From Hydrurus foetidus (lineage: Eukaryota), in contig UYFQ01000576.1 of assembly GCA_900617105.1 (NCBI GenBank), positions 62,001-89,607 of the forward strand: DNA of 27,607 nt, in the 5' to 3' direction. Positions 551 to 20,570 of this stretch are shown here, in pieces; within the stretch, counting starts at the first letter, position 1, and each line of letters starts with the position of its first letter. The notes under the pieces were generated by a model. The model saw nothing but the letters and a program-made list of their open reading frames with translations, was not told where the DNA came from and did not search any database. The translations under genes were made by a program, and so were the position numbers.

Positions 551-603
551 CTTACGGTGTCGGATTTCAGGGAAAGTTAGAATCGGATTTCGGTTTTTGA
601 AAT
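551..603. repeat. Left portion of the first palindromic repeat unit, split by the 604-5506 insertion
   Basis: CTTACGGTGTCGGATTTCAGGG...TTTTTGAAAT is identical to the starts of the units at ~5786, ~6099 and ~6429 and continues at 5509. Confidence 0.9.
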
Positions 604-842
604 AAGCCGCTCACACAGGAATTCCTTGTACCGGTACCATTTTTTTCTCAAAGTCGAACATACTCGAGCAACCAGATCACAATTCACCACAACTCCAGAA
701 ACGCTTACAATCACAACTATCAACCAATCAAGACGCCGTAAGGATTTTCTAGTAGCTGGTATCGTAGTCAGTCAACCACTGTAGCGGCGAAATCAAAATC
801 GCAATCCTAATCGCGCAGTAGTTCAGGACATTCTGTATCGTT
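604..842 (+). repeat. Left terminal inverted repeat (239 bp)
   Basis: AAGCCGCTCACACAGG...CATTCTGTATCGTT; matches the reverse complement of 5268-5506. Confidence 0.95.
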
Positions 843-856
843 TCTCATTTTTTTCG

Positions 857-3285
857 ATGGGTCGTAAGTGCTGTTGCACTTATACAGACGAGTGTGCCGA
901 GCTTCAGAAACGGCTGACTGCTCTGAAACAGTTTCATCTGTGAGTCGTTGTCTTTTCAAGATCATCATCAACTATCCTCACTGATTATTTGCAGCGAAAA
1001 ATCTCATGAATTATTTCTTGAATTTCAGGGTGGGATTAACTCGAATTCCTAGTCTGACTAAGCTAAGATTTACTGCACCAGCAATTCTATCCGATCACTA
1101 CCGGTGCTCTGTAATTAAACACCTTCGGTTGAGCGATTTGGATGAGCGATTGGAACATTTCGTTGCTTTCAGTCACTGGCATCCGAAGGTGCTAGAGTTA
1201 TTCGACGAAAGTAAGGATGTTGGAGCCAAAAAGATGTTTCCTAGAGTACTGAGCCTCGTTCTCGGTAGAGAAATAGGTCTCGAAAGCTATGACAGATTAC
1301 CGGCGGCAACCTCCTCTCCTACAAGTTACTATGTTAATGTCCCGTCAGCTACGCTACAGTTCTATGACAATTATCTCAATACGGAGTTCATTGACCGTCA
1401 AATTGGTTTTATTGCGTCTGGCGACGGCTTCGTTAGTCCTGATCTTCGGAAATCCTTATCAGCATCTGGAAGCGAGGAAACAGCCGGAAGCTCTTCCCTT
1501 GCTCGGCTATCAACGGTACAGCAGAGATCTTCATTTGTGGCTGCAGAAATACAGTCTGAAGAGAGAAATATGAAAAAACAGAAAGTTGAAGATAGGGATA
1601 GAGCTAGGAGAGAAAAGAGATTATCAACAATAGAACTCATGAGTGAGGATGGTCAGAAGCTGCTGAAAAAATCTGTTGCTGAGGTGAATACGCTCAAAAG
1701 GCAACTTGAAGAGATGGAAAAAAAGAACAAAGCTCTGCGTGAGAAAAAGAAAGAAATGCACTGTGAACTCGACGTTATGAAACAAATAATGTCAAAGAGC
1801 ATAGTCCGCTCTAATATAGTCTGTCCAACATGGCACAAAAACAATCCTAGATTCGTACCCTACTGGCTGGGATTCATAAGTTATGCTGAGTTTACAATTT
1901 ATCACAATTGTTTTTGGCCAGATGTGAGTACTATAGTCCGAATCAATGACGGTAATATAAGTGAATTTGAGAAAAGCATGATCACGAAAATGTTCTTCAG
2001 GAAAGGATTGGAGTTTGAGCTTATCGGTTACATATGGGGAAGAACAAACATTGGACGCTATGTGAGGTCTTGGGCTCCTCTGTGGGGTGAAGTAGGAGCT
2101 GACCTTTCTATCCTGGATATAAACGAAACAATTCTCATTGCGCTTACTCCAGAAGATTACATCAATGGATGTACTGACAAGATATGTGGTCTCGTTGACG
2201 GCAAAGACTTCAAGACAGAGACAATACGGATACACAGCGGGATAACAAGAGCAAGTCATTCTAACAAAGTGAACTGCTCAGCACTTCGTGTTTTATCATG
2301 GATACTTAACAATGGTCTAAATGTGGAGAGATCTGAACCATACTTGGGTCGCGCATCAGAGACACACATTGTCCAAGTTCTGGGTTCTCATGTAGGGGAA
2401 GTTCCTATACGTGAATGTGATAGAGTTCTATACAGTGCTCTGAAGAAATCGAATCATACAAGAGAGTGTCGTGTGCGCGACACAGTGCAGAATACGGGCA
2501 GAATGATTGCATCAGTGACAAGAAACAAAGGAGAATGTATGGAAGGGGACGAAGACGCATCAGCTGTTGACAAGGAGATCACATTCTGCAATCGAGCAGA
2601 CCAGTGGTTTAAAGGTGCTGTTGTAGCTCATGAGAATGGAAGTGTTGTGGAAAAGAGAAAAGCGAGAGTGTTTACTACACTTGATCACGACAACTTAGAG
2701 AAGACCGTCCTAAGATCTGGACCCAACCAATCTCCCGAATCAAAATTGGTGCAACTCAGACGTCTGCAGAGACTGGATGTCGAGTATAGAAATGGCAATC
2801 TAGAAGGCTGTCTGTTGTCTGAATACCTTGAAGTAACCAAGAAGCTCAGGAAAGATATGATAGCTGTCCTGAGGGGACGCCCATTGAAAGGATTAGATGG
2901 AGAGATCCTCGACATGACTGCTCACAACGCTAGACTAGTGGAGCTGCGGCTGCCCCTGCGATTAGGTAAATTTCCAAGGGGTTGGGCAATACTAGCAGAT
3001 AGAGGATTTGCTAATGATGCGACACGTTACCCAAATATGAATGTTCAAATGACACCATCATTTCTGTCGGGTAGAGATCAGTTCACATATTCTGAATTGT
3101 CAGCTGATATGGTTAAATGTAAACTGCGATATATTTCGGAAACAAACTTCGCAAGAGTTACTGATGAAAACTTGTTGACCGATGTCATACCTGCAAGTGT
3201 ATTACCTTATATCAAGGACTGTATTTCCTGGGGTCATGCAAGCGCCAACCTTTGTAAGAAGTACAAAGATAGGAACTATGTGTAA
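857..3285 (+). CDS. ISL2EU/Harbinger-type DDE transposase with THAP-like N-terminus; exons 857-939 and 1029-3285
   Basis: ATG857 opens MGRKCCCTYTDEC. The intron 940-1028 (GTGAGT...TTCAG, 89 nt) splices in frame (CT|G) into ORF 1006-3285. A THAP-like C..C...P...FVAFSHW and a coiled coil precede the core motifs GLVDGKD (D, 2197), HSNKVNCSALR, YLGRASE, ILADRGF (D, 2998), TPSFLSGRDQFT and LRYISETNFARV (E, 3139). Confidence 0.88.
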
Positions 3286-3317
3286 TGTAAGTTGTTTCTT
3301 AAATTTTAGATGAATAT

Positions 3318-5246
3318 TTAATAAACGTATTCTAACAAAATGCCAGTGCTTGACAATGCTTTTACAGATTCTGGAAATATGTCAACAATTTTGCTGTGAG
3401 GTAATAAGAAATTTGTTTGGATTATTCTTATTATACCTAAAAATCCCAGCATGTGAGAGCAGAACATTTGTCCTGCGGGGCAATCGCAGTGTGAATAAGG
3501 ACTTCTCACAAATCTCTCCGCTTCATCATTTCCATCTATCATACGTATCTTGAAAACCAGATTAACAGCGTATGCATTGGCTTTCATCGATGGCGTACTT
3601 TTTATCTGATACATTATGCATTTTACTGCTAAACCCTCAAATTTACAATCTATAAGGCACACCTTCAGTGTTGACAGATCAAAATGTCCGCCGCATATCA
3701 GACGCATTGCTCGATTCTCCACTCCACCACGATGTCCAAATATCTTAAACACGAAGCTCTCATCCACAACTGGTGTCATTGAAGGGTCTCGCATGTGATT
3801 CACATTGAAATCTCCATCTAGATTCCACTTCACACCACCTACACCAACATCAATATTAGCCTCCTCAGGAAGATCGTCCACAGGTATAATTTCTCTCGGG
3901 GTGATTTCAATGAGGAGACTTTTAACGGACTGAACTAGATCGCTGTGAGCAACAGCAGGTGAATAGCGAACCCCCCTAGCGCGCAACCATCTGTTGAGCA
4001 TGTCAGAGGGACACATTAATGGTGGCCACTTCACAAAGTTGTGCTGACTACCCCAAGGCAATAAAAGTCCTCCAGCATTGCGAGGTTGCATTACAGGTAA
4101 CAGTGGGCTCATCGTTCTGATGAAGATGTTGTTATCCATGAAGAGCAGTTTTCTGAAATCTCCTAACTCATGCACCTCATTCAACGGATTATGTCCTAGC
4201 TTATCCATCACGAATTCATCGGTCAATAATAGGTCCTCAATGCCGAGGAGACCCACTTGAACACTGGCATCATCGTCTAAAGAATCAAACTTGAATACCG
4301 GAGGGTGTTTCAGCATGTTGAAGGCGTGCCAAAATTTCACACGGTAATTGGGAAATGCATCTGTGTTCTCACTCCCACTTTCGCTATTTTTTCGTTTTCT
4401 TTTTCCTACTTCTATCTCCTGGAGCATTTTTTCCTTCTCATCTGCTGATGATACCATCCATTTGGAAAGGAAACTCTCAACACTCTTCGGTCCGAATCCT
4501 GTTGGTCGTGCAAGAAAATCGCTCCCTAATAACACGCTGAGGACTCGCCCATGATCGGCTGTCATAATGATACTACCATCGGTGGAAAGTCTTTTGGATA
4601 ACGCCTCTCTGATAACTTCACTATCAAAAAGTATCATCGTGCCTTTTGTTATGCTGACCTTTGTAGCCCATGATTTACTGTTAAGAGGAAAGAAGTCCCC
4701 ATCTTCCGAAAACGTCCCATCCGTTATACCCATATCCTCTAGGTGCTGCAGCCCAGCGTCAGCTTCGTACAGCGACATTACGCAAACAACAGCATTCGTT
4801 GCCGCCCAAGTTTTGATAGTGAGTAGCATGTCCTCCGAGATATACATTGTTGATTTTTGGAGCTTCAGAACTTTCTCTGCATCATCTTCGTCACCGGTCT
4901 GAAGGAGTGCATTTAGTTTCTGAAATGCATCAGCTCTTTCCGATTCCCGGAGAACGTTGGTGTCGAATTTGGCTGGATTCCTCCGGCCATCTAGTACTAA
5001 TACTAGTTTAATAGAAAATCCGTCGCACAGCTTCTTAAATGAGTCCCAGAATTTAGTTATGTAAGCTGAAATATCGACGCGAGGATCAGAGTGAAAATCT
5101 CGGACTAGATTGTCCCTCGATGTCACCAACTTGAACATGTAATTAGAGACATCTACCCCCATAGTTCTGTTCTTCAACACTTCGAGAGTTGTTTCCACCT
5201 TCAGCTCGTCTGGAAATATCTTACTTATTAGATCCTTGATGCCCAT
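3318..5246 (-). CDS. Exo1/XPG/FEN1-family 5' nuclease fused to a SAP-like helix and a C-terminal SWIM zinc finger (transposon ORF2)
   Basis: Starts MGIKDL (ATG at 5246). Nuclease motifs: GVDVS, LVLDG, YEADA, SEDGD, and H3TH LLGSDF..PTGFGPKS. SAP-like LNRWLRARG..HSDLVQSV. SWIM region PSMKANAYAV...CDCPAGQMFCSH (CxC-x5-CxH). Confidence 0.9.
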   Translation of the reverse strand: MGIKDLISKIFPDELKVETTLEVLKNRTMGVDVSNYMFKLVTSRDNLVRDFHSDPRVDISAYITKFWDSFKKLCDGFSIKLVLVLDGRRNPAKFDTNVLRESERADAFQKLNALLQTGDEDDAEKVLKLQKSTMYISEDMLLTIKTWAATNAVVCVMSLYEADAGLQHLEDMGITDGTFSEDGDFFPLNSKSWATKVSITKGTMILFDSEVIREALSKRLSTDGSIIMTADHGRVLSVLLGSDFLARPTGFGPKSVESFLSKWMVSSADEKEKMLQEIEVGKRKRKNSESGSENTDAFPNYRVKFWHAFNMLKHPPVFKFDSLDDDASVQVGLLGIEDLLLTDEFVMDKLGHNPLNEVHELGDFRKLLFMDNNIFIRTMSPLLPVMQPRNAGGLLLPWGSQHNFVKWPPLMCPSDMLNRWLRARGVRYSPAVAHSDLVQSVKSLLIEITPREIIPVDDLPEEANIDVGVGGVKWNLDGDFNVNHMRDPSMTPVVDESFVFKIFGHRGGVENRAMRLICGGHFDLSTLKVCLIDCKFEGLAVKCIMYQIKSTPSMKANAYAVNLVFKIRMIDGNDEAERFVRSPYSHCDCPAGQMFCSHMLGFLGIIRIIQTNFLLPHSKIVDIFPESVKALSSTGILLEYVY

Positions 5247-5267
5247 CAGTGAAACAAACAAGATGTC

Positions 5268-5506
5268 AACGATACAGAATGTCCTGAACTACTGCGCGAT
5301 TAGGATTGCGATTTTGATTTCGCCGCTACAGTGGTTGACTGACTACGATACCAGCTACTAGAAAATCCTTACGGCGTCTTGATTGGTTGATAGTTGTAAT
5401 TGTAAGCGTTTCTGGAGTTGTGGTGAATTGTGATCTGGTTGCTCGAGTATGTTCGACTTTGAGAAAAAAATGGTACCGGTACAAGGAATTCCTGTGTGAG
5501 CGGCTT
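5268..5506 (-). repeat. Right terminal inverted repeat (239 bp)
   Basis: Reverse complement of 604-842. Confidence 0.95.
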
Positions 5507-5508
5507 AT

Positions 5509-6640
5509 CCAATTCTGACTTTTTCGATTTCCGACGCGGAGATTGTCGGAAATTCGGCCTATTTTTCGACAATCTCCGCGTCGGAAATCGAAAAAGTCAG
5601 AATTGGATTTCAAAAACCGAAATCCGATTCTAACTTTCCCTGAAATCCGACACCGTACGGACCGGCCTTATTTCCGATTCCAACTCGGTCGAAAATCGAA
5701 AAAATCGAAAAACCTTGGGTCGGTCGGAAATTTTCTTGAAATCCGATTCCGACTTCCGTGAAATCCGACGCGCATAAGGACCGGCCTTACGGTGTCGGAT
5801 TTCAGGGAAAGTTAGAATCGGATTTCGGTTTTTGAAATCCAATTTGACTTTTTCGATTTCCGACGGAGATTGTCGGAAATTCGGCCTATTTTTCGACAAT
5901 CTCCGCGTCGGAAATCGAAAAGTCAGAATTGGATTTCAAAAAACCGAAATCGATTCTAACCGACACCGTACGGACCGGCCTTATTTCCGATTCCAACTCG
6001 GTCGAAAATCGAAAAAATCGAAAAACCTTGGGTCGGTCGGAAATTTTCTTGAAATCCGATTCCGACTTTCGTGAAATCCGACGCGCATAAGGACCGGCCT
6101 TACGGTGTCGGATTTCAGGGAAAGTTAGAATCGGATTTCGGTTTTTGAAATCCAATTCTGACTTTTTCGATTTCCGACGCGGAGATTGTCGGAAATTCGG
6201 CCTATTTTTCGACAATCTCCGCGTCGGAAATCGAAAAAGTCAGAATTGGATTTCAAAAACCGAAATCCGATTCTAACTTTCCCTGAAATCCGACACCGTA
6301 CGGACCGGCCTTATTTCCGATTCCAACTCGGTCGAAAATCGAAAAAATCGAAAAACCTTGGGTCGGTCGGAAATTTTCTTGAAATCCGATTCCGACTTTC
6401 GTGAAATCCGACGCGCATAAGGACCGGCCTTACGGTGTCGGATTTCAGGGAAAGTTAGAATCGGATTTCGGTTTTTGAAATCCAATTCTGACTTTTTCGA
6501 TGTCCGACGCGGAGATTGTCGAAAAATAGGCCGAATTTCCGACAATCTCCGCGTCGGAAATCGAAAAAGTCAGAATTGGATTTCAAAAACCGAAATCCGA
6601 TTCTAACTTTCCCTGAAATCCGACACCGTACGGACCGGCC
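5509..6640. repeat. Tandem array, ~330-bp period: a 200-bp palindrome (90-bp arms + 20-bp spacer) alternating with a ~110-bp module, joined by GGACCGGCC-TTA
   Basis: 6101-6190 and 6211-6300 are perfect inverted arms. Copies start at ~5788, 6101 and 6431. The ~110-bp module lies at ~5668-5778, ~5980-6090 and ~6311-6420. Confidence 0.92.
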
Positions 6641-7863
6641 TAAGGCCGGTCCTTACGCGCATCGGATCCCACCAAAATCGGAATCGGTTTCCAAGTTCTT
6701 TTCCGATTCCTCATGAGAATCCCATCTTGCGCAGCACTTTTCAAGCAAGAAGAGAATTCTTCAAATCCGACTCTCGACATTTCTGTTTTCTGATCGCCCC
6801 TCGATCGGAATTCATGAGCGATTTCCGATCGAGGAGCGATCAGAAAATAGCTGTCGGATTTCAAGCATCATCGCCACATTTACTGGATTGGCGTCGTAAA
6901 GGAAATCTGGCGTAGAACATTTCGACTCAAATGAAGGGGTTTAAGGTTAGACATCTGAGGTGTAAAGTGACGTCGTCGAAATTGGCACCAGGGAAGAAAT
7001 CGTTCAGTGTCAAGGAATTTTTGAATCGAAGGAAAATTAAACGCATGCTTCCTGTCGAGATAGCAGCGAATCCTGTCTGCAAGAACATTCTGTTCATAAT
7101 ATTTGAGCGCCCGAACATGAATGTCCTTTTCATTCTTCACCTGAGTTGTATGCAACTCGAAGAAGACAAGGAGAATTATCAAGGATTGCGCATCTTTAAT
7201 TAATTTCTGTGGAGCTGAAGAGCGAGGCGCTGCAACGACTTTCAACTTCGGGTGGCGCTGCGATATTTGCTAGATGATTCTGTGAAGAATTCGAATGGTA
7301 GAATGTAGAGATTGGTTGATATGTTCACTGTGATCAGATATCCATGTCGACGATGATCTGAAATACTTTGAGGACTTTTTCCTCTTCTGCTTTCCAGAAT
7401 TCAATTCCGGTAACACTGAGGATATACGGAAAATGTCGACACGGAAACTGACGCAAAAGTGACCAAAAAGTGTGAAAACCGAGAACTTCAGTTCCTGAAT
7501 TGTTACTTTTCACTTTCCGTGGCAGCTGGCCACGGGCTAGTGGAAAAGGAAAGTTCACTTTTCCGTCATGTCGACATTTTCCGTATATTACGACCGCAGA
7601 ATAAAAGTAGCAGTTTCGCACTGAAAAATAGGCCTGCACTGGGGGGGGTGCACAACCAAAAGTCTGGAAGGGGGGGGTGCGCAAGCAATATGTCATGGAA
7701 CTATCGGTGAGTATTATGCAATCTTCCATCTTCCAACTTCTCTAGTCCATCAATTTCACCTGACTGTCGTTGGCTGATAGTTCAAAGTTTGAATATTGGA
7801 TCGAAATCTCTTAGAAATTTTCCGCATCTCCTGTTTGTTTCTGCCATTCTTGTGAAACTGAAA

Positions 7864-8645
7864 ATGAAGTTGCAAAAGAAGATCAGCGTTGCAAAGAAGG
7901 CAGTGAGGAAGACAAAGCCAGTTCTGATTCCCACAATCAAGTGGACGATGACTGACAATTTGTGTCTGTTGTATGCTATTTGGGAGATGTGTACTCCTCT
8001 TCAGAAGCTGATTTTGACGGTAATCCAATTATCAACTTGCATGTAAGGCCAAACCCACCTTCAATTTAGGATGCAATTCTCTCATCATTATCTCCTCTAC
8101 CCTTTCAGATGGACGGGAAGTTGTCATTCGTTGAATCTTTCAAGAAGACCATGAACTTACTGCCCAGTCAGAAGGTTACCAAAGGCATTTCTGCATTGGA
8201 TGTAAATTTATATCTTAGATGGCTTAAATCAGACTTATCTACACGAAACATCAATGCAGAATATGTTTGGAGAAGGGTAAAAAAAGTAGACAAGAGCACT
8301 TCTAGAGACTTCAATGGTGCCAGTGTTTATAAACTAATGAATGGTCGTGTTGGTCAGTACATTCTTTTTGGGAAAGCTAAGTGGAATAATGATGCGCATC
8401 GGAAGCAGATGAAGAGATTGCGGGCTGCTGGTAATGAACGAATTAGATTCAAATTATACGGCATCATTGCTAACGGAACAAAGCAATCTGATCATGCTGT
8501 TGGTGTATTTATTCGTGCTGCTGATGAGCATTTACTTTATGACAACTCCATGCGCAACATTTCTTTAAAACTTACTGCGGACAGTTTAACCAACAAAATG
8601 TCTGATGTTAGCTGCTGCTACATTTTTGATTTGAAATATTTGTAA
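7864..8645 (+). CDS. Putative papain-fold cysteine peptidase (Josephin/C39-like motif order); exons 7864-8019 and 8109-8645
   Basis: The 89-nt GT-AG intron 8020-8108 joins the ORFs in frame (LILT|MDGK). Motifs DNLCLLYAI (Cys), DHAVGV (His) and LLYDN (Asp) are in papain-like triad order. Confidence 0.55.
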
Positions 8646-9241
8646 TATCAATTAATTATTTTATTTGGGTGAAACCCAATTTTTAAGTCGGACAAGGCCG
8701 TATCATGATAGGAACAACAGTTCTTCGTGCTCTGACCCTTCTGATGTGGTCTTGTCTTAACTAAAAGTTAAAAATTTCAATCGATACATTACTTATCTTG
8801 AACAGGTAATTTGCCCATTTTCTATTCAATCAGCTCCATTGAAATGCCAAGTCACCGTGTCATATCACTTATCAACTTTTTTTGAAAGTCACCGTGATTT
8901 ATGCTTTGTATTTACAATATTTGATTACCGCTTTTTACTCTTAACGAAGTAATCATGACTCACCATCTTCTGATGTCTGTTGTTTCTACTGTGTTGACTA
9001 TTCTGATGTCTTTAAGGTATCCGCTCTTCTAATCACGGTGACTTCTGAAAAAGTCACCGTGATTTTTTAGTATTAAAGGTAATCTTTCAATAGGCCACGC
9101 TATTCTCTCACAGTTTCACGCAAATTGCAATTGCCATTGAACTCCTCATGTCTTTTACATGTGTGACTAGTTCGATTTTGCCGTAAAGGTTTCTTTAATT
9201 CGAATGTAACCTTTTTTTATTTAGTCGAGGGATGTAACGCT

Positions 9242-9720
9242 TCATTTTTCAGTCAAGGGATAGTTAATCGAAACGTCCAAAGTTGAGGGATAGTCAATGG
9301 ATGAAGCAGAAATGAATAGTCTGTAATTTTCAATCTGATAATCTGATCCTGCGTGAACCATATCACCTCTGAAGAAAAGCATGCTTGATTTAGGAATGCG
9401 TACTTTTTCATCTAGTGATCCAACATACAAGAATGTGTTTTCCATCAACGCTATCAATGCAGAGTAGTGGAAGACTTTTAAGTCTTTGAGTCGTTTGGAT
9501 GATTTTGGATCTGGCACGTGATCAGTATGAAGTTTTTGTGCTAGATTACCTTTCTGTGATCTAAGGAGCTTGACGCCGATAGTTTTGCATCCTGGGAAAA
9601 CAATCTCTATCGCTTCGAGCACATCACCGATGATGTCTCTCTCATTGCTAACTTTCTGCATTGTTCTCAAAGGTGGCCCAGCTTCTTCTGAGAAAGTGAT
9701 TGGCTCTATATCTCCTTCAG
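9242..9720 (-). CDS. 2OG-Fe(II) oxygenase (PhyH-like double-stranded beta-helix); 5' end uncertain or truncated
   Basis: QKLHTDH (HxD), SALIAL, MLFFRGDMVHAG (distal His), ENYRLF (2OG-binding Arg). The frame is open upstream to a TGA near 9746, with no in-frame ATG before 9661. Confidence 0.72.
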
Positions 9721-9973
9721 TGACTAGATGAGGTCTTCTTTGTTCTCACTATATTCATGTCGTGCACCCCCACCCTTCCACACTTCGAAGTGAGTGTGTA
9801 CCCCCCCTTGTCCACGATTTCAGTGCGAAACTGCTACTTTTATTCTGCGGTCGTAATATCCTCAATGTAAGGTCCGGTAAGTTTTGTTCAGTCGGAAAAT
9901 GGATGAATCGGAAAAGAACTTGGAAACCGATTCCGATTTTGGTGGGATCCGATGCGCGTAAGGACCGGCCTAA

Positions 9974-10101
9974 GGACCGGCCTTATTTCCGATTCCAACT
10001 CGGTCGAAAATCGAAAAAATCGAAAAACCTTGGGTCGGTCGGAAATTTTCTTGAAATCCGATTCCGACTTTCGTGAAATCCGACGCGCATAAGGACCGGC
10101 C
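9974..10101. repeat. Further copy of the ~110-bp array module with GGACCGGCC ends
   Basis: Matches ~6302-6429; it is the continuation of the array after the 6644-9970 insertion. Confidence 0.9.
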
Positions 10102-10500
10102 TAAGGCCACTCCTTATCGCTTACCGCACCATTTTTACGAGAACGAGTTTCTTATCTTCTTGTAAACCTAACTCGACTTTTTTCCCCGGAGTTTCACTCC
10201 TTAAATCCCAGAAACCCAGAAATCCCAGATCCTAAATCTGGGTTTCTAAGTTTTTTGAATTTACGGTCGCACCCAAATCAGATGGAGACGTGACAAACAT
10301 TGAAACTGCAGATTGCATACTAGTTAGCAGCAACGAAGGCGTCATTGAGAACCCTGTCTGAAGTAATCGAGCCGCTGACGATGTGTGACAGTACCACTAC
10401 ATAAAGGGGCAACAATTTTCGGAGTGTTCGCAGATAAACAGAAAGTGGCCAGTTTGTTTGTGTACAGAGGGCCAGGAGTTGTTGACTCTTTGCTGAATCG

Positions 10501-12520
10501 ATGAGAATGCGACCTGCTGTCAAAATAAGAATAGATGATTTAACACCTTCGGCCAGGGGTATAACAGCTAGCGTGCGGGTACTTCTGTGGGGTATAGTGC
10601 AAGTGATTGTCCAGAATGAGGCTGCTCAACCCGAAATACAGAGGGAGAGTGTCCACACTACGTTCGACACTGGATCCAACGACTCCAACTCTCTCCCTTC
10701 TGTTTTTGCTGGTTCAGGGGACAGCGCGAAGCCTGAGCGCATTGGTGCTGTGCAATACCATGTCGATGCCGTGACGAAACTAACTGAGACAAAAAGAAGC
10801 CAGCGCGATAGAGAGTATGAAGAGCAATTTCTTAGTGAGGTGAAGGCATCAAGAAGTGATCTCGAAGATAACATGAAGGAATTCGCCATCCTCAATGGAG
10901 ATCTAGAAGACCAGTTGCCTCTGTCATTTGGCAGAAAAGCTGTATCAAAACCTCATAGAACTCATCTAGACAACGCATACGAGTCACTCTCGCCCGACGA
11001 GAATTATAGTGAGATGATGGAGCTGCCCAAACCCCCACCACTTTTCATGGAGAGCAACATTCATTGGTTGAAAATTTATCGATCAGGAAACGATGAAAGT
11101 CTGCCCTCGCTTTATCAGCTTGTGAGGGTTATAGGATGTGGGCGGAGTAAGTGTGTTGCTGACAAGAAATGTGAAACGACAGTGGTCGAATTTCTAGATA
11201 TGGAGGGAGAAGTTCGAAAGGGAAAAAAACTTGAAGTCGATAGAGACCATCTCCGAGTTTGTCAGTCGATTTCACGTGATGTGAGGAAATCAATTACCGA
11301 CATCTTGTGTTCAGATATAATCGGTCCACCAGGTGAATTACGGTTGCTGAACATGTCGGACTGATTCATACATTTGTACTTTCTGCTGTTATAGCCTTCT
11401 CTCTAATTGCTTTGATTTGGGTGAAGTACTGTTCTACTGGCATCAAACTCTCTCCCTCCCTCTTCCCTCCCTCCCACTTTTATCCTCCACTGCTGCAGAC
11501 GTGCACACGAAGTACTGGGACCAGAGGTTCCGTCTCTTCCGCTTATTCGACAGGGGGGTGCGCATGGACGCAGAGAGTTACTACTCCGTGACCCCCGAGT
11601 GTATTTCGCAACACATAGCAGACAGGCTACTGCAGAGCTTCAGAGTGCCCGAGAAAAAGGAATTGAGCAGCAGGAGTCAGAAGAAGGAGAGACAACGGGA
11701 GAGGAAGAGAGAGAGAGAAAGAGCTATGGCCGCTGCAGCTGGCGATGAGACAGCTGCAGCTGGGAGCGCTGATCTGGCTATCACTGCTGGTCCTGTTCCT
11801 GCTGTTCCGACTGCCAGTGTAACCCAGGCATCGAAGATAAGTCTCGTTCTGGATCTATTTTGCGGGTGCGGGGGCAACGCGATTCCTCTCGCCTCCGTAT
11901 GCGACTCCGTCATTGCCGTGGACATTAATCCACAGAAGCTAGCGGATGCAAGGTGAACAGTCAGATATACTTGATTGCCTGGTCGCTCGCGGCTTCAGTG
12001 GATAATAGTAACGCACCTTTTTTTAAATGTAATCTCACGTGACGCACATATTTCCCTCTCTGATCAATCCCCTCATCTCCATCTCCTCCTCTAAACCCGC
12101 CCTCGTGTATTCGGGCATAGGGTCAACGCGCGTGTGTACAGTATGGAGCAGAAAATAGATTTTGTGTGCGCTGACGCCTACGACATCTTGTCGGCCCTGA
12201 CACCCCCTGACAGCAGCAGCGGTGTGTCGGTGGTGGACGCAATTATCTTGGCGCCTCCTTGGGGCGGTCCCGACTACAACACCCACGAGCGCTTTGACAT
12301 GACTACGGGTTTCCCCTCAGGGGACGGATATGGGTTGATACGACTAGCCGCCCAGGTGTGCGGTAAGATTGTGTGTGTGTTCCCTCGCAATATCGACAGA
12401 AGACAGGTGCAGTCCTTCGCACATCGGCTGGAGATGGACTACTTGATAGAAGACATCTGCCTTTATAGGAAACACAAAATGTCGATCATCTACTTCACTC
12501 GACTTCAAAGTGACTCATAA
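10501..12520 (+). CDS. TGS1: Trimethylguanosine synthase (RNA cap guanine-N2 methyltransferase); exons ~10501-11332, 11499-11952, 12121-12520
   Basis: KYWDQRFRLF..FDRGVRMDAESYYSVTPE.I..HIA, SAM motif VLDLFCGCGGNAI, AVDINP, VNARVY...IDFVCAD, LAPPWGGPDY, FPRN. Both GT-AG introns (11333-11498, 11953-12120) splice in frame. The start codon is uncertain. Confidence 0.92.
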
Positions 12521-14479: not shown

Positions 14480-15991
14480 TCATGACGCGCGTCTCACTAG
14501 TGCAGGCCGGACACTCTGCTCAACGTCTCCGTCATCGTACAGAATATCGAAGGACCCGTCAACTCTAGTCTTAGTGATTTTCCCTCTAAACCACTCCCCT
14601 CCCTCTGCGTAGTTGCCCTCCACGACACTGCCCTCTTGCAGACCGTCAAGAGCTGCATGCTGCAAGGATTGGACTACCACTACCTCCCTGGGTGTTGGCT
14701 CCTTCGCGGTGTGCGCTGCCCCTGCTTGCTGTCTCGAGGGTTCGTCATGTACAATTGCAGTGGAGCCGTTGTGAGTTCTGTGGGAGAGAGCTGCTTGCTC
14801 ACTGGCGATCTCTTTTCCTTTTTCTTTCCCCTTCTCTTCTTCCATCTCCTTGACTTTCGAGGGGAATGCAAAGGTATCCTTCGTGACCCATGCAGCACTA
14901 GACGATTGCTTCTCCGCCACCGACACAACCTGTGCCTGTGCCTTTCCTGTCTGCGAGTCTGAGTCTGCCTTTACCTGTGCGGGCGACACGACATCAGCAG
15001 TGCCTGGCACAACTTTTTGAGGAAAAGGTGCAGAAGTGGATGGGGGCTTTTTGGCTCTCTTGGCGAGGTCTTGCGAGATCGCCCTCGTGGTGTCCAAGAC
15101 CTTGTCGCTCACATCGAACAACATGGACACAGGAACGACCACTCCCACACCCTCCTGTTCCGTAACACCCTTGCTGATTGTGTCACTGTGCCTGCTGAAG
15201 ACAAGTGCCTTCTGCACAGCAACAGCAGCGATGCCCTTGATGTCACCTGCACTCCTCTTCTCAGTCACTTCCCGTGACGCTCTATCGCCAGTAGCAGCAG
15301 CAGCGGCGTCGATCGTGGATGAGCCCTTCTCTCCCTTCAGCTGATCTCGATCTCTCCCTTCTGTGCATTCAACGGATGCTGCTGCTGCCACTGATGTGGG
15401 TGCAGGTGCACGGCTCTTAGGGCCTATGAACTTTTGTCCCGCTGGTGCTAGTGCTGAAGCTGACCCCTGCCCCTGTTCATGCTGATGATCCGCTGCAGAG
15501 GCAGAAGGTCCAGGATCTGATTTCCCACCACCAGCAGCAGCAGTGACTTTGTCACCCTTGACGGTAGCTTCTCTGAGGCGGACATACCATGCCTCCACGC
15601 CCCTTTCCTCCATTCCGTCATCGTACAGCAGGTCGTACATCGCGCTGCTTCTGCTCCCCAGTAATGTCTCGCCCTCGTAAGCCCTCGTCACTGTGCCTGG
15701 AAACCAGTTACCCTTGCCCCGGTACTCGCCCTCCACCTTGGTGCCCTCCAGCAGCAGCACGGCATCTGTGCTACCCGCCCTCAGGTCAACTGCGGAGGAT
15801 ATGAATATGGACTGGGGAGTGGTCTGCGAGTGCGGAGTACCGAACAGGCCGGGCATCGAAGGCAACTTGCGTATCTCCGGATAGCTGATCACTTCGAGCC
15901 GGGTATTCTTGATCGGCGTGGAGTAAACAGACTGAGTGCTGTGTGTATGAGTGCGGATAGGGAGAGCACAGCTGTTAGCCATATTGTTCAT
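14480..15991 (-). CDS. Protein with two Tudor/Agenet-like domains separated by a low-complexity linker (probably the last exon of a gene starting at 16829)
   Basis: LEGTKVEGEYRGKGNWFPGTVTR...YDLLYDDG.EERGV and LQEGSVVEGNYAEGGEWFRGKITK..DGSFDILYDDGDVEQSV. Confidence 0.8.
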   Translation of the reverse strand: MNNMANSCALPIRTHTHSTQSVYSTPIKNTRLEVISYPEIRKLPSMPGLFGTPHSQTTPQSIFISSAVDLRAGSTDAVLLLEGTKVEGEYRGKGNWFPGTVTRAYEGETLLGSRSSAMYDLLYDDGMEERGVEAWYVRLREATVKGDKVTAAAGGGKSDPGPSASAADHQHEQGQGSASALAPAGQKFIGPKSRAPAPTSVAAAASVECTEGRDRDQLKGEKGSSTIDAAAAATGDRASREVTEKRSAGDIKGIAAVAVQKALVFSRHSDTISKGVTEQEGVGVVVPVSMLFDVSDKVLDTTRAISQDLAKRAKKPPSTSAPFPQKVVPGTADVVSPAQVKADSDSQTGKAQAQVVSVAEKQSSSAAWVTKDTFAFPSKVKEMEEEKGKEKGKEIASEQAALSHRTHNGSTAIVHDEPSRQQAGAAHTAKEPTPREVVVVQSLQHAALDGLQEGSVVEGNYAEGGEWFRGKITKTRVDGSFDILYDDGDVEQSVRPALVRRAS

Positions 15992-16246
15992 ATCGTCAGT
16001 GGCAGTAGATCAGAAATTAAAATCCGAGACATCAAATGCAAATCCGAAGCAACGAAAAAGGAGAAACTGGAGAGATTAGTGCGCATGCCTAAGATTACTG
16101 CACAGGCAGTTTGTCTAAATATGGATGAACGTGTTTTGCGAAGTTTAGGCTGTATGATTGGTGTACAGTGTGCTGCACTGCACTGTGGGGATTCTGCGGG
16201 GTGACACCGGAGAACAAGAACAACACGATAATGATCCATACCGTAC

Positions 16247-19296: not shown

Positions 19297-19500
19297 AGAG
19301 TGTTTGCGATTTCGGATTTTATCCAAAAACGACTTTCAAAGTCGTCTTCTTCAAAGTCATTTTTTACAGAAAAAAAATCTAAAAACGACTTCGTCGGTCA
19401 AGAGGGCCGAACTCATTTTAGGTGATGCCTTTTCATTTTTTTGGGAAGAAAACGACTTTGAAAGTCGTTTTTGAATAAAATCCGAAATCGCAAACACTCT
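19297..19500. mobile_element. ~204-bp MITE with ~50-bp TIRs (AAT TSD, or TA if read 1 bp shorter at each end)
   Basis: AGAGTGTTTGCGATTTCGGATTTTAT.CAAAAACGACTTTCAAAGTCGT versus ACGACTTTGAAAGTCGTTTTTG.ATAAAATCCGAAATCGCAAACACTCT; AAT at 19294-96 and 19501-03. Confidence 0.8.
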
Positions 19501-20570
19501 AATCAAGAACAACTTAATCAAAATATTGGAGGTCTTTTAAACGCTTAATGGGGGCATAATTAATCTGTTCTTCGAAACATACTCACAATCTCTCTCATAA
19601 TCTAAACAGCCTCTTGATATCTGATAGCCAAGAAGGATAAAAATGTAGCCAGGTCATGAGTACGCGACGTCATGACTAGAATGACAAGCGTCCAAAATTT
19701 ACTGCCAATCGCACGGCGGCACTGATAGAGGCTCCTTCTACCTGATTCCAATTGCTGAGACAACCAACAATATCTTTATGTAACTCTGAGTTTGAGTTTA
19801 GGTGGTTCAACGCCCAATATTATTCTTAGTACTTTTTTTCTCAGTTAATCAATTCCTGTAGTTCTCTCTCACCACTAATTTTCAGTAATTAATTCGTATT
19901 TCAAATAATTCTCACGAAATCCATTCTCACGACATATTACGTTTACGGTATTACGGTTTTTTATTTTCTTCGATATCAGCCAAAATATGATCATTTTTGC
20001 ACGTTTCAAGAGTAGCAGTGAAGCGCAACTCAACTTTCTTCGAGAACTGTCAACTTTGGGATACGTGAGACATTATGATCTTGATAGATCTTGTAACTGA
20101 TCTTTGGCTCAGCAGCTATTCGAGTTCAAAATCGCCCATTTTGGAGCGAAAACAGTGATTTTGACAGAGGTCAAAATTTCCCACATGAAAACGGGGAGAA
20201 AGTTTTCCGTGATTTTAAGTGTATTTCCGATAAATCCTAGTACCACATTTGAGGACAAACAAAGGGCACTCGACGGTAGAGTGTTTGTGTTGGGATTTCG
20301 GTGAATCCGGGGAGGATTCAGTGACTCCGCGTAAGTCGAGTTAGGACCCAAGACTCGTGAAATAAGACCTCTGTTTAATCAGGCCACAATTCACCGCCAT
20401 CATACGAAAAAATCATAGATTTTTGCCGTAGGATTCTATGATATTTTCCGTTATCCCAATTCATCATGAAACGATAGAAGTCAAGCTATAGATTCGAATT
20501 TCAAATTGATTTACAAAATCAAAGTGGTTTGTACAGCTTTTCCTGCAGTTCACTACCACATTTTTTCAAT

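Follow-up and report, generated by a model that had tools for sequence, protein, structure and literature searches.

The 27,607-nt window analysed here (positions 62,001 to 89,607 of Hydrurus foetidus contig UYFQ01000576.1) carries at 604–5506 an apparently intact transposon of 4,903 bp, in which two genes face each other between terminal inverted repeats (TIRs). Gene 1, on the plus strand, encodes a protein that the evidence below supports as an ISL2EU-like DDE transposase, and gene 2, on the minus strand, encodes an Exo1-type 5' nuclease with a SAP- and SWIM-like tail. The coordinates of all features are collected in Table 1. The TIRs begin AA and differ from each other at one position only (712); with the palindromic AT target-site duplication included, the inverted arms run from 602 to 842 and from 5268 to 5508. 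With the element and one AT taken out, the two flanks reproduce the neighbouring 330-bp repeat letter for letter, once for a 71-nt join (at 6118) and five times for a 31-nt join. Complete TIRs and an AT duplication with a verifiable empty site had been proposed in an earlier note, made from the letters alone, and both hold. The element lies in an array of an internally palindromic 330-bp repeat (551–603 and 5509–6641), which recurs at 9908–10117 and is very deep in public sequencing runs X1 and X2.

The near-identical TIRs and the open frames suggest that the insertion is recent. One copy of the element is present in the window. The contig holding its left end in public runs takes in the AT and breaks 0–2 nt beyond it in 4/4 runs, and the element interior is a single 4,485-nt contig, with 5 differences, in two runs that are possibly the window's own source. 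Interior depth in X1 and X2, likewise possibly the source of the window, was 473 and 464 against 96–111 on three long flank contigs, an excess that faintly suggests more than one, near-identical copy. A separate, deep contig in runs X1, X2, X3 and X6 (4/4) matches the element end 602–646 over 34–45 nt with 4–6 differences; it is preceded by 118–131 other bases, the same in all four runs, and represents a sister repeat or an end lying within another repeat.

The two genes of the element

The long frame of gene 1 (985–3285) has no start codon of its own. Starting from ATG 857 and removing a predicted GT..AG intron of 89 nt yields one open frame of 779 aa, which is the most likely gene model on sequence grounds, and the left TIR, because it ends so close to that ATG, likely holds the promoter. 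The two genes had been described in the earlier note as uninterrupted and convergent. They are convergent and gene 2 is a single frame, but for gene 1 "uninterrupted" is likely wrong, since two related metagenome loci (L001 and L005, see below) begin with a comparable Cys-rich exon that is followed by an intron at the matching position. This exon and a later His motif make up a candidate THAP-like finger; Pfam THAP was found in 0/56 gene 1 relatives, whose rows mostly lack exon 1.

Numbered as in P0002 (start at 988), the catalytic residues D404 (at 2197), D671 (at 2998) and E718 (at 3139) are conserved in 51/51, 50/50 and 50/50 filled rows of the transposase alignment, and K427 and R714 are likewise invariant. 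The spacings D404-22-K427 and D671-18-P690-23-R714-3-E718 agree with the ISL2EU (PHIS) core motif D..K..D(11-19)P(18-28)R(3)E as given in the available part of PMC4122938, from which gene 1 differs by a long gap before D671: an insert of about 190 residues splits the catalytic core between the first and the second catalytic Asp. Pfam made no THAP or DDE call on the gene 1 protein of the window; among the 56 relatives, at E<=0.05, DDE_Tnp_4 was found in 29/56 and HTH_Tnp_4 weakly in 8/56, the latter rising above the Pfam cut-off in relative P0150. The nearest ESM Atlas clusters (0.90) carry DDE_Tnp_4 and HTH_Tnp_4, the helix-turn-helix (HTH) domain, and one neighbour at 0.90 is named "is4eu-1 dr", IS4EU being, we take it, an older name for ISL2EU. 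The predicted structure of gene 1 has a mean predicted local distance difference test score (pLDDT) of 83.8 and aligns best to Tn5 transposase (Z 9.3, root-mean-square deviation 4.8, 196 residues, range 338–765). Foldseek returned zero matches to it at E<=0.001. Because the Tn5 alignment runs across the gap, the DDE core is predicted to close around the helical insert. Together, the Atlas neighbours, the PHIS motif, the Tn5 alignment and DDE_Tnp_4 in relatives support the ISL2EU-like assignment of the earlier note.

Gene 2 is a single open frame (5246–3318, 642 aa). Both XPG_N (28.5 bits, cut-off 22) and XPG_I (24.9 bits, cut-off 24.9) reach their Pfam cut-offs, the closest solved structure is human Exo1 (E 4.8e-7), and a 50-row nuclease profile matches Exo1 at 2e-51, Rad2 at 5e-39, FEN1 at 5e-37 and GEN1 at 6e-23, thus preferring Exo1 by 12 orders of magnitude, in a family whose nuclease tree had only one host-like EXO1. 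The seven acidic FEN1/Exo1 active-site positions read from the letters are all present and conserved across the family. In the filled rows of a 132-row nuclease alignment they are kept as follows: D32 in 82/87, D86 in 86/90, E161 in 94/99, D163 (as D or E) in 95/96, D182 in 95/96, D184 in 94/96 and D243 in 101/106. With the basic arch residues K93 (84/87) and R100 (89/92), nine catalytic positions are thereby conserved in 94–99% of filled rows among proteins that are mostly 20–30% identical. Gene 2 shares with eukaryotic EXO1 the seven carboxylates with their E-A-D pattern, the arch Lys/Arg, an N-terminal Met-Gly and the best profile match; it differs in being about 20–30% identical, in ending in SAP-SWIM(-T) and in being encoded within a transposon. 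By sequence, then, its product is an Exo1-type 5' nuclease with an intact active site.

Towards the C-terminus gene 2 carries C587-x-C589-x6-C596-x-H598 (3453–3488), conserved in 104/110, 107/111, 101/105 and 106/108 rows of the nuclease alignment. Pfam made no SAP or SWIM call on the gene 2 protein of the window and found SWIM in 8/70 relatives, below cut-off. Both labels therefore come from relatives and from the ESM Atlas, where the clusters closest to residues 395–642 are SAP+SWIM ones from cnidarians and arthropods (0.93 and 0.91). This resemblance agrees with the SAP/SWIM module of the earlier reading. The absence of YqaJ agrees with that reading too: domain scans found it neither on gene 2 itself nor in its relatives (0/70) or the locus open reading frames (ORFs; 0/12); a YqaJ+SAP cluster at 0.80 to residues 395–642 is a lead only. 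A gene 2 model from a 15-row alignment (pLDDT 43) was not used.

Set against ISL2EU (PHIS) elements as described in the available parts of the literature, the element shares the AT duplication, two ORFs, a length near 4.8 kb and a TIR length within 6–259 bp (PMC4482050), together with the HTH_Tnp_4-like region and a second ORF with a 5'→3' nuclease. It differs in that the ISL2EU second ORF is a YqaJ protein and here has the Exo1/XPG fold, that ISL2EU TIRs usually start GG and here AA, and that the insert in the core and the split and permuted relatives (see below) are found here. The target context may differ as well: in ISL2EU the AT has A on its left and T on its right, and at the single site known here it has A and C. 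The Exo1-type domain may have taken the place of YqaJ, as the earlier note proposed, or the replacement may have run the other way, or the nuclease may have been gained separately. The 25 ISL2EU families in the available part of PMC4482050 are all animal, whereas the host here is likely a freshwater microbial eukaryote, to judge from the GT-AG intron, the TTAGGG repeats and matches in metagenomes of freshwater, sediment and air. With PIF/Harbinger, which has two genes, both needed, according to the accessible part of PMC9179366, the element shares a related DDE core (the 29/56 relatives with DDE_Tnp_4). Membership in Harbinger was rejected, since that group has a 3-bp TWA duplication and a Myb/SANT second ORF and this element a 2-bp AT and no Myb/SANT; nor did gene 1 give a profile match to the Harbinger-type transposase found elsewhere in the window (probability 0.2%).

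That a DDE transposon can bring along an exonuclease, with a proposed part in the processing of transposition intermediates, is known from KolobokE, KolobokD and Dada (PMC9587614, PMC3706591, available parts), and for this reason the theme of an accessory nuclease is not new. Those belong to other superfamilies, their nucleases are lambda-like PD-(D/E)xK or DEDD (3'→5') enzymes, and no split core is described for them in those parts of the sources. What is new here is the XPG/Exo1 fold and the split or permuted core: neither an XPG/Exo1 partner nor a split PHIS core was found described in the literature covered, which took in neither Repbase, where the family may be catalogued, nor most subscription papers.

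Domain T and the shuffled layouts of the gene pair

The intron, the insert of about 190 residues and the domain shuffling described in this section were absent from the earlier note. In relatives, the nuclease protein continues beyond SWIM into a tail domain, T, which in this window lies inside the transposase. A profile built on 26 DDE-free tails of nuclease proteins, their boundaries set with another profile that had the window family as its seed, scores 39.5 bits on gene 1 residues 526–630, against a best score of 8.9 bits in a shuffle control (470 scored of 500 shuffles), and the stop codon of gene 2 falls exactly where T begins in relatives. T is all-helical in the gene 1 model; its identity as a YqaJ remnant found no support.

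Relatives were collected from proteins and by scanning metagenomes for patterns of the core's second half, matches being confirmed against a fused protein; the scan yielded 7 loci, and other layouts may have been missed. Since confirmation used a fused protein, the sample leans towards this clade. Where both genes are present (6 loci) they are convergent, with last codons 38–126 nt apart. XPG lies on a contig with transposase parts in L001, L002 and L004, and SWIM does so in 4/7 loci. For the window family, gene 1 and gene 2 cluster members occur on equal-sized contigs in five cases (4824, 4491, 5241, 4749 and 4433 nt), which is indirect linkage. The nuclease family comprises 385 representatives at E<=1e-10, some of which, outside the 150 listed, may be host nucleases, and one gene 2 relative (P0042) comes from a transcriptome. 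No relative was confirmed in viral contigs and none was found in the prokaryote genomes, plasmids and phages scanned. One split-type fusion protein, P0233, stands in the public record as a hypothetical protein from a metagenome-assembled genome assigned to a Crocinitomicaceae bacterium; it has no match in GTDB genomes and likely comes from a mis-binned eukaryotic contig. Searching PDB sequences with profiles for either DDE half or for T gave nothing useful.

Layouts were called with domain profiles for five parts: N (finger, coiled coil, HTH), D1 (the half with the first Asp), D2E (the half with the second Asp and the Glu), T, and X (XPG-SAP-SWIM). Four arrangements of facing genes were found. 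The contiguous layout, N-D1-D2E facing X-T, is seen in L004 (a frameshifted copy) and in 13 cores with P0231 set aside, as the latter proved to be an internal deletion of an inserted core and was rejected as contiguous. The split layout, N-D1 facing X-T-D2E, occurs in L001, L002 and L005, with 14 proteins that join XPG-SAP-SWIM-T-D2E in a single frame and 7 of N-HTH-D1 only (near-identical cluster members counted). Its reciprocal, N-D2E facing SWIM-T-D1, occurs in L003 and L006. The inserted layout, N-D1-T-D2E facing X, is that of this window and of 34 proteins, fragments counted. In addition, P0150 (3 members of equal length) has SAP-SWIM-T-N-D1-D2E in one frame of 1,102 aa. Two further proteins are possibly deletion products: P0107, with XPG joined to D1, and P0148, with XPG-T-D2E and no SAP-SWIM. 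The break point in the core is the same in all layouts, marker motifs being 26 residues apart in 6 contiguous cores and 212–248 residues apart in inserted cores, and every complete layout includes T, on one gene or the other.

On the map of two facing genes, a single central inversion leads from the split layout to any of the other three, contiguous, reciprocal or inserted. As the start codons of both genes lie within 22 nt of matching TIRs, such an inversion would swap 3' ends only, and it is likely that an exchange of 3' ends between two facing genes placed T inside the transposase. The present layout (N-HTH-D1-T-D2E facing XPG-SAP-SWIM) would then stem from a split one (N-HTH-D1 facing XPG-SAP-SWIM-T-D2E) by one inversion that re-joined the core around T. 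Inversions of the element middle would leave the element viable; they would be tolerated because the genes face each other from matching TIR promoters and the products assemble together.

This copy probably descends from a split ancestor. Split rows and the window family fall together in a D2E tree of 110 columns (support 86/91; P0231 is labelled contiguous in this tree and was left out of later ones) and in the gene 2 tree (Shimodaira–Hasegawa-like approximate likelihood ratio test, SH-aLRT, 86), in which the class ending after SWIM takes in truncated proteins and so inflates the change count. The reciprocal split L003 is sister to the split P0056 (100/99). A different history, in which T moved straight into the transposase or the split layout arose from the inserted one, leaving this copy without a split ancestor, we consider a real if lesser possibility. 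An inversion is reversible, so that going from inserted to split takes as few steps as the opposite, the supermatrix trees leave the matter without resolution, and the inserted cores may form one clade (p 0.33 in the approximately unbiased, AU, test). Locus geometry speaks for the split ancestor, the split layout being the one-step neighbour of the contiguous, inserted and reciprocal layouts and a contiguous core being unable to become inserted by one inversion, as does the grouping with split rows in two separate-domain trees, with moderate support.

Proposed mechanism and its rivals

We put at even odds, by analogy with Tn7-like elements, that the two proteins make up a single transposase, with the nuclease responsible for cutting or trimming the 5' (non-transferred) strand at either end of the element. 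The transposase would bind the TIRs, nick the 3' ends and join them across a 2-bp staggered AT target, and the nuclease, held at the ends via SAP, SWIM and T, would remove the 5' flank or flap, as a counterpart of TnsA beside TnsB. In the latter pair, according to the available part of 10.64898/2026.05.05.722991, the non-transferred strand is cut by a separate nuclease, and both the cutting and the joining of the transferred strand fall to the DDE enzyme. The likeness is one of division of labour, which for this element we infer; TnsA and TnsB differ in being bacterial, in having an unrelated nuclease fold and in needing TnsC. In support stand the intact catalytic residues of both proteins, the family-wide pairing and the fusion of the nuclease to half a DDE core. 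In split elements the nuclease shares a chain with two of the three catalytic acids and would therefore have to sit in the active transpososome, a placement that favours the proposal of the earlier note that 5' processing may be a required step.

The wider reading joins this mechanism to the layout history: a protist ISL2EU-like clade would have a heteromeric transposase with an Exo1-type 5' cut and a two-gene DDE core reshuffled by inversion, this copy being the re-joined descendant of a split transposase with a nuclease tail domain in its active-site fold. We give this combination a probability of roughly one in three. Several points weigh against the two-protein mechanism and the proposed layout history. 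XPG stands beside transposase parts in just 3/7 loci, the other 4 ending at contig edges, and two of the three XPG-bearing loci (L002 and L004) carry frameshifts. The base of the tree is unresolved in both supermatrices, AU tests reject a single origin of no layout (p 0.40, 0.33, 0.30 and 0.12), and the trees fall short of proving a split ancestry. Transposition of PIF/Harbinger and Spy relatives proceeds without a nuclease partner, as the accessible part of PMC4122938 has it, and for that reason the core may cut both strands alone. A complex prediction for gene 1 residues 375–765 with gene 2 residues 385–642, run without alignments, gave 0.09, which counts neither for nor against.

The nuclease could instead work at the donor site: the transposase would excise alone, and the tethered nuclease would resect the 5' ends at the empty site, so that homologous repair copies the element back and copy number rises. 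Exo1 is a resection enzyme, the gene 2 domain lies nearer to it than to Rad2, FEN1 or GEN1, and YqaJ/lambda-type partners, which are 5'→3' exonucleases too, share its polarity; tethering is accounted for equally well. Exo1-family enzymes, however, cut 5' flaps as well as resecting 5' ends, so that the family assignment does not decide the matter; host EXO1 could serve for resection, and at the transpososome the element's own ends would be at risk unless shielded. We hold donor-site resection to be less likely than processing at the element ends. That gene 2 is mainly a structural partner, with SAP, SWIM and T serving end binding and assembly like the Harbinger Myb partner and the nuclease merely tidying the integration gap or helping modestly, is unlikelier still. 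The presence of T in every complete layout fits such a role, and the several unrelated accessory exonucleases of Kolobok and Dada suggest an optional, exchangeable helper (PMC9587614, PMC3706591, available parts); the nine catalytic positions are, however, kept at >=94% (at least 94%) across proteins about 20–30% identical, and P0148 retains XPG-T-D2E with no SAP-SWIM seen. As for cargo, that is, a captured host EXO1, it is highly improbable: Exo1 is the best solved relative and one host-like EXO1 (P0170) stands among the best 150 matches, yet gene 2 has a SAP-SWIM-T fusion, in-frame fusions to DDE halves, deep family diversity and a fixed convergent layout. A lone host EXO1 was accordingly rejected as its identity, and the one-off capture that the earlier note had named among the outcomes that would refute it is not borne out: nuclease-SWIM proteins form a large family of high diversity and, on other contigs, neighbour transposase parts or are fused to them.

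For the two-protein transposase, the finding that the second gene encodes a 5' nuclease of unrelated fold, active site intact and in relatives fused to half the core, points to 5' processing at the transpososome and bears on the role of the second gene in ISL2EU, and the compact, apparently intact copy makes the role of the nuclease testable. The DDE fold would moreover have a natural split point, after the half with the first Asp and before the strand with the second, that tolerates splitting, reciprocal swapping and insertion of about 190 residues; this is of use in studying the evolution of multi-gene transposons and in the design of two-component transposases.

Feature coordinates and neighbouring sequences

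Table 1. Features of the element and its target site (positions in the window)
Feature	Position	Strand	Basis or remark
Target array, 330-bp palindromic repeat	551..6641	.	element inserted in it
Left target-site duplication AT	602..603	.	sequence; empty-site matches
Left TIR, 239 bp	604..842	+	stops 14 nt ahead of gene 1 ATG
Exon 1, gene 1 (predicted), Cys-rich start of THAP-like finger	857..939	+	likeness to L001/L005 first exons
Intron, 89-nt GT-AG (predicted)	940..1028	+	open frame; L001/L005
Exon 2, gene 1: zinc-finger-like part, coiled coil, HTH region, DDE core	1029..3285	+	relatives, model, conservation
Insert in DDE core, first to second Asp; holds helical domain T (core 2563–2877)	2386..2952	+	domain profiles, model
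SWIM-like C-terminal module, gene 2	3321..3839	-	stop codon 3318–3320
SAP-like helical module, gene 2	3882..4094	-	relatives, ESM Atlas
Exo1-type (XPG/FEN1 superfamily) 5' nuclease domain, gene 2	4287..5246	-	Pfam, profile, conservation
Right TIR, 239 bp	5268..5506	-	stops 21 nt ahead of gene 2 ATG
Right target-site duplication AT	5507..5508	.	empty-site matches

Beyond the element, a 42-bp perfect inverted repeat with weaker arms inside bounds 7585–9859, likely another TIR element; its frames at 8070–8645 (+) and 9242–9745 (-) have no Pfam match. The Harbinger-type transposase frame lies at 20478–21878 (+) (Plant_tran E 3.8e-33, DDE_Tnp_4 E 1.1e-10) and is faced by a 163-aa frame at 22097–22588 (-) with no Pfam match; no TIRs were found around it in 19500–23300. 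An ordinary host gene of two exons at 11351–12520 (+) encodes an RNA cap guanine-N2 methyltransferase (Methyltransf_15), and a frame at 14480–16009 (-) has two Tudor/Agenet-like repeats (weak Pfam). A short TTAGGG run is present at 23210–23345, and a pure A/T hexamer in about 278 copies occupies 25936–27604, up to the window end.

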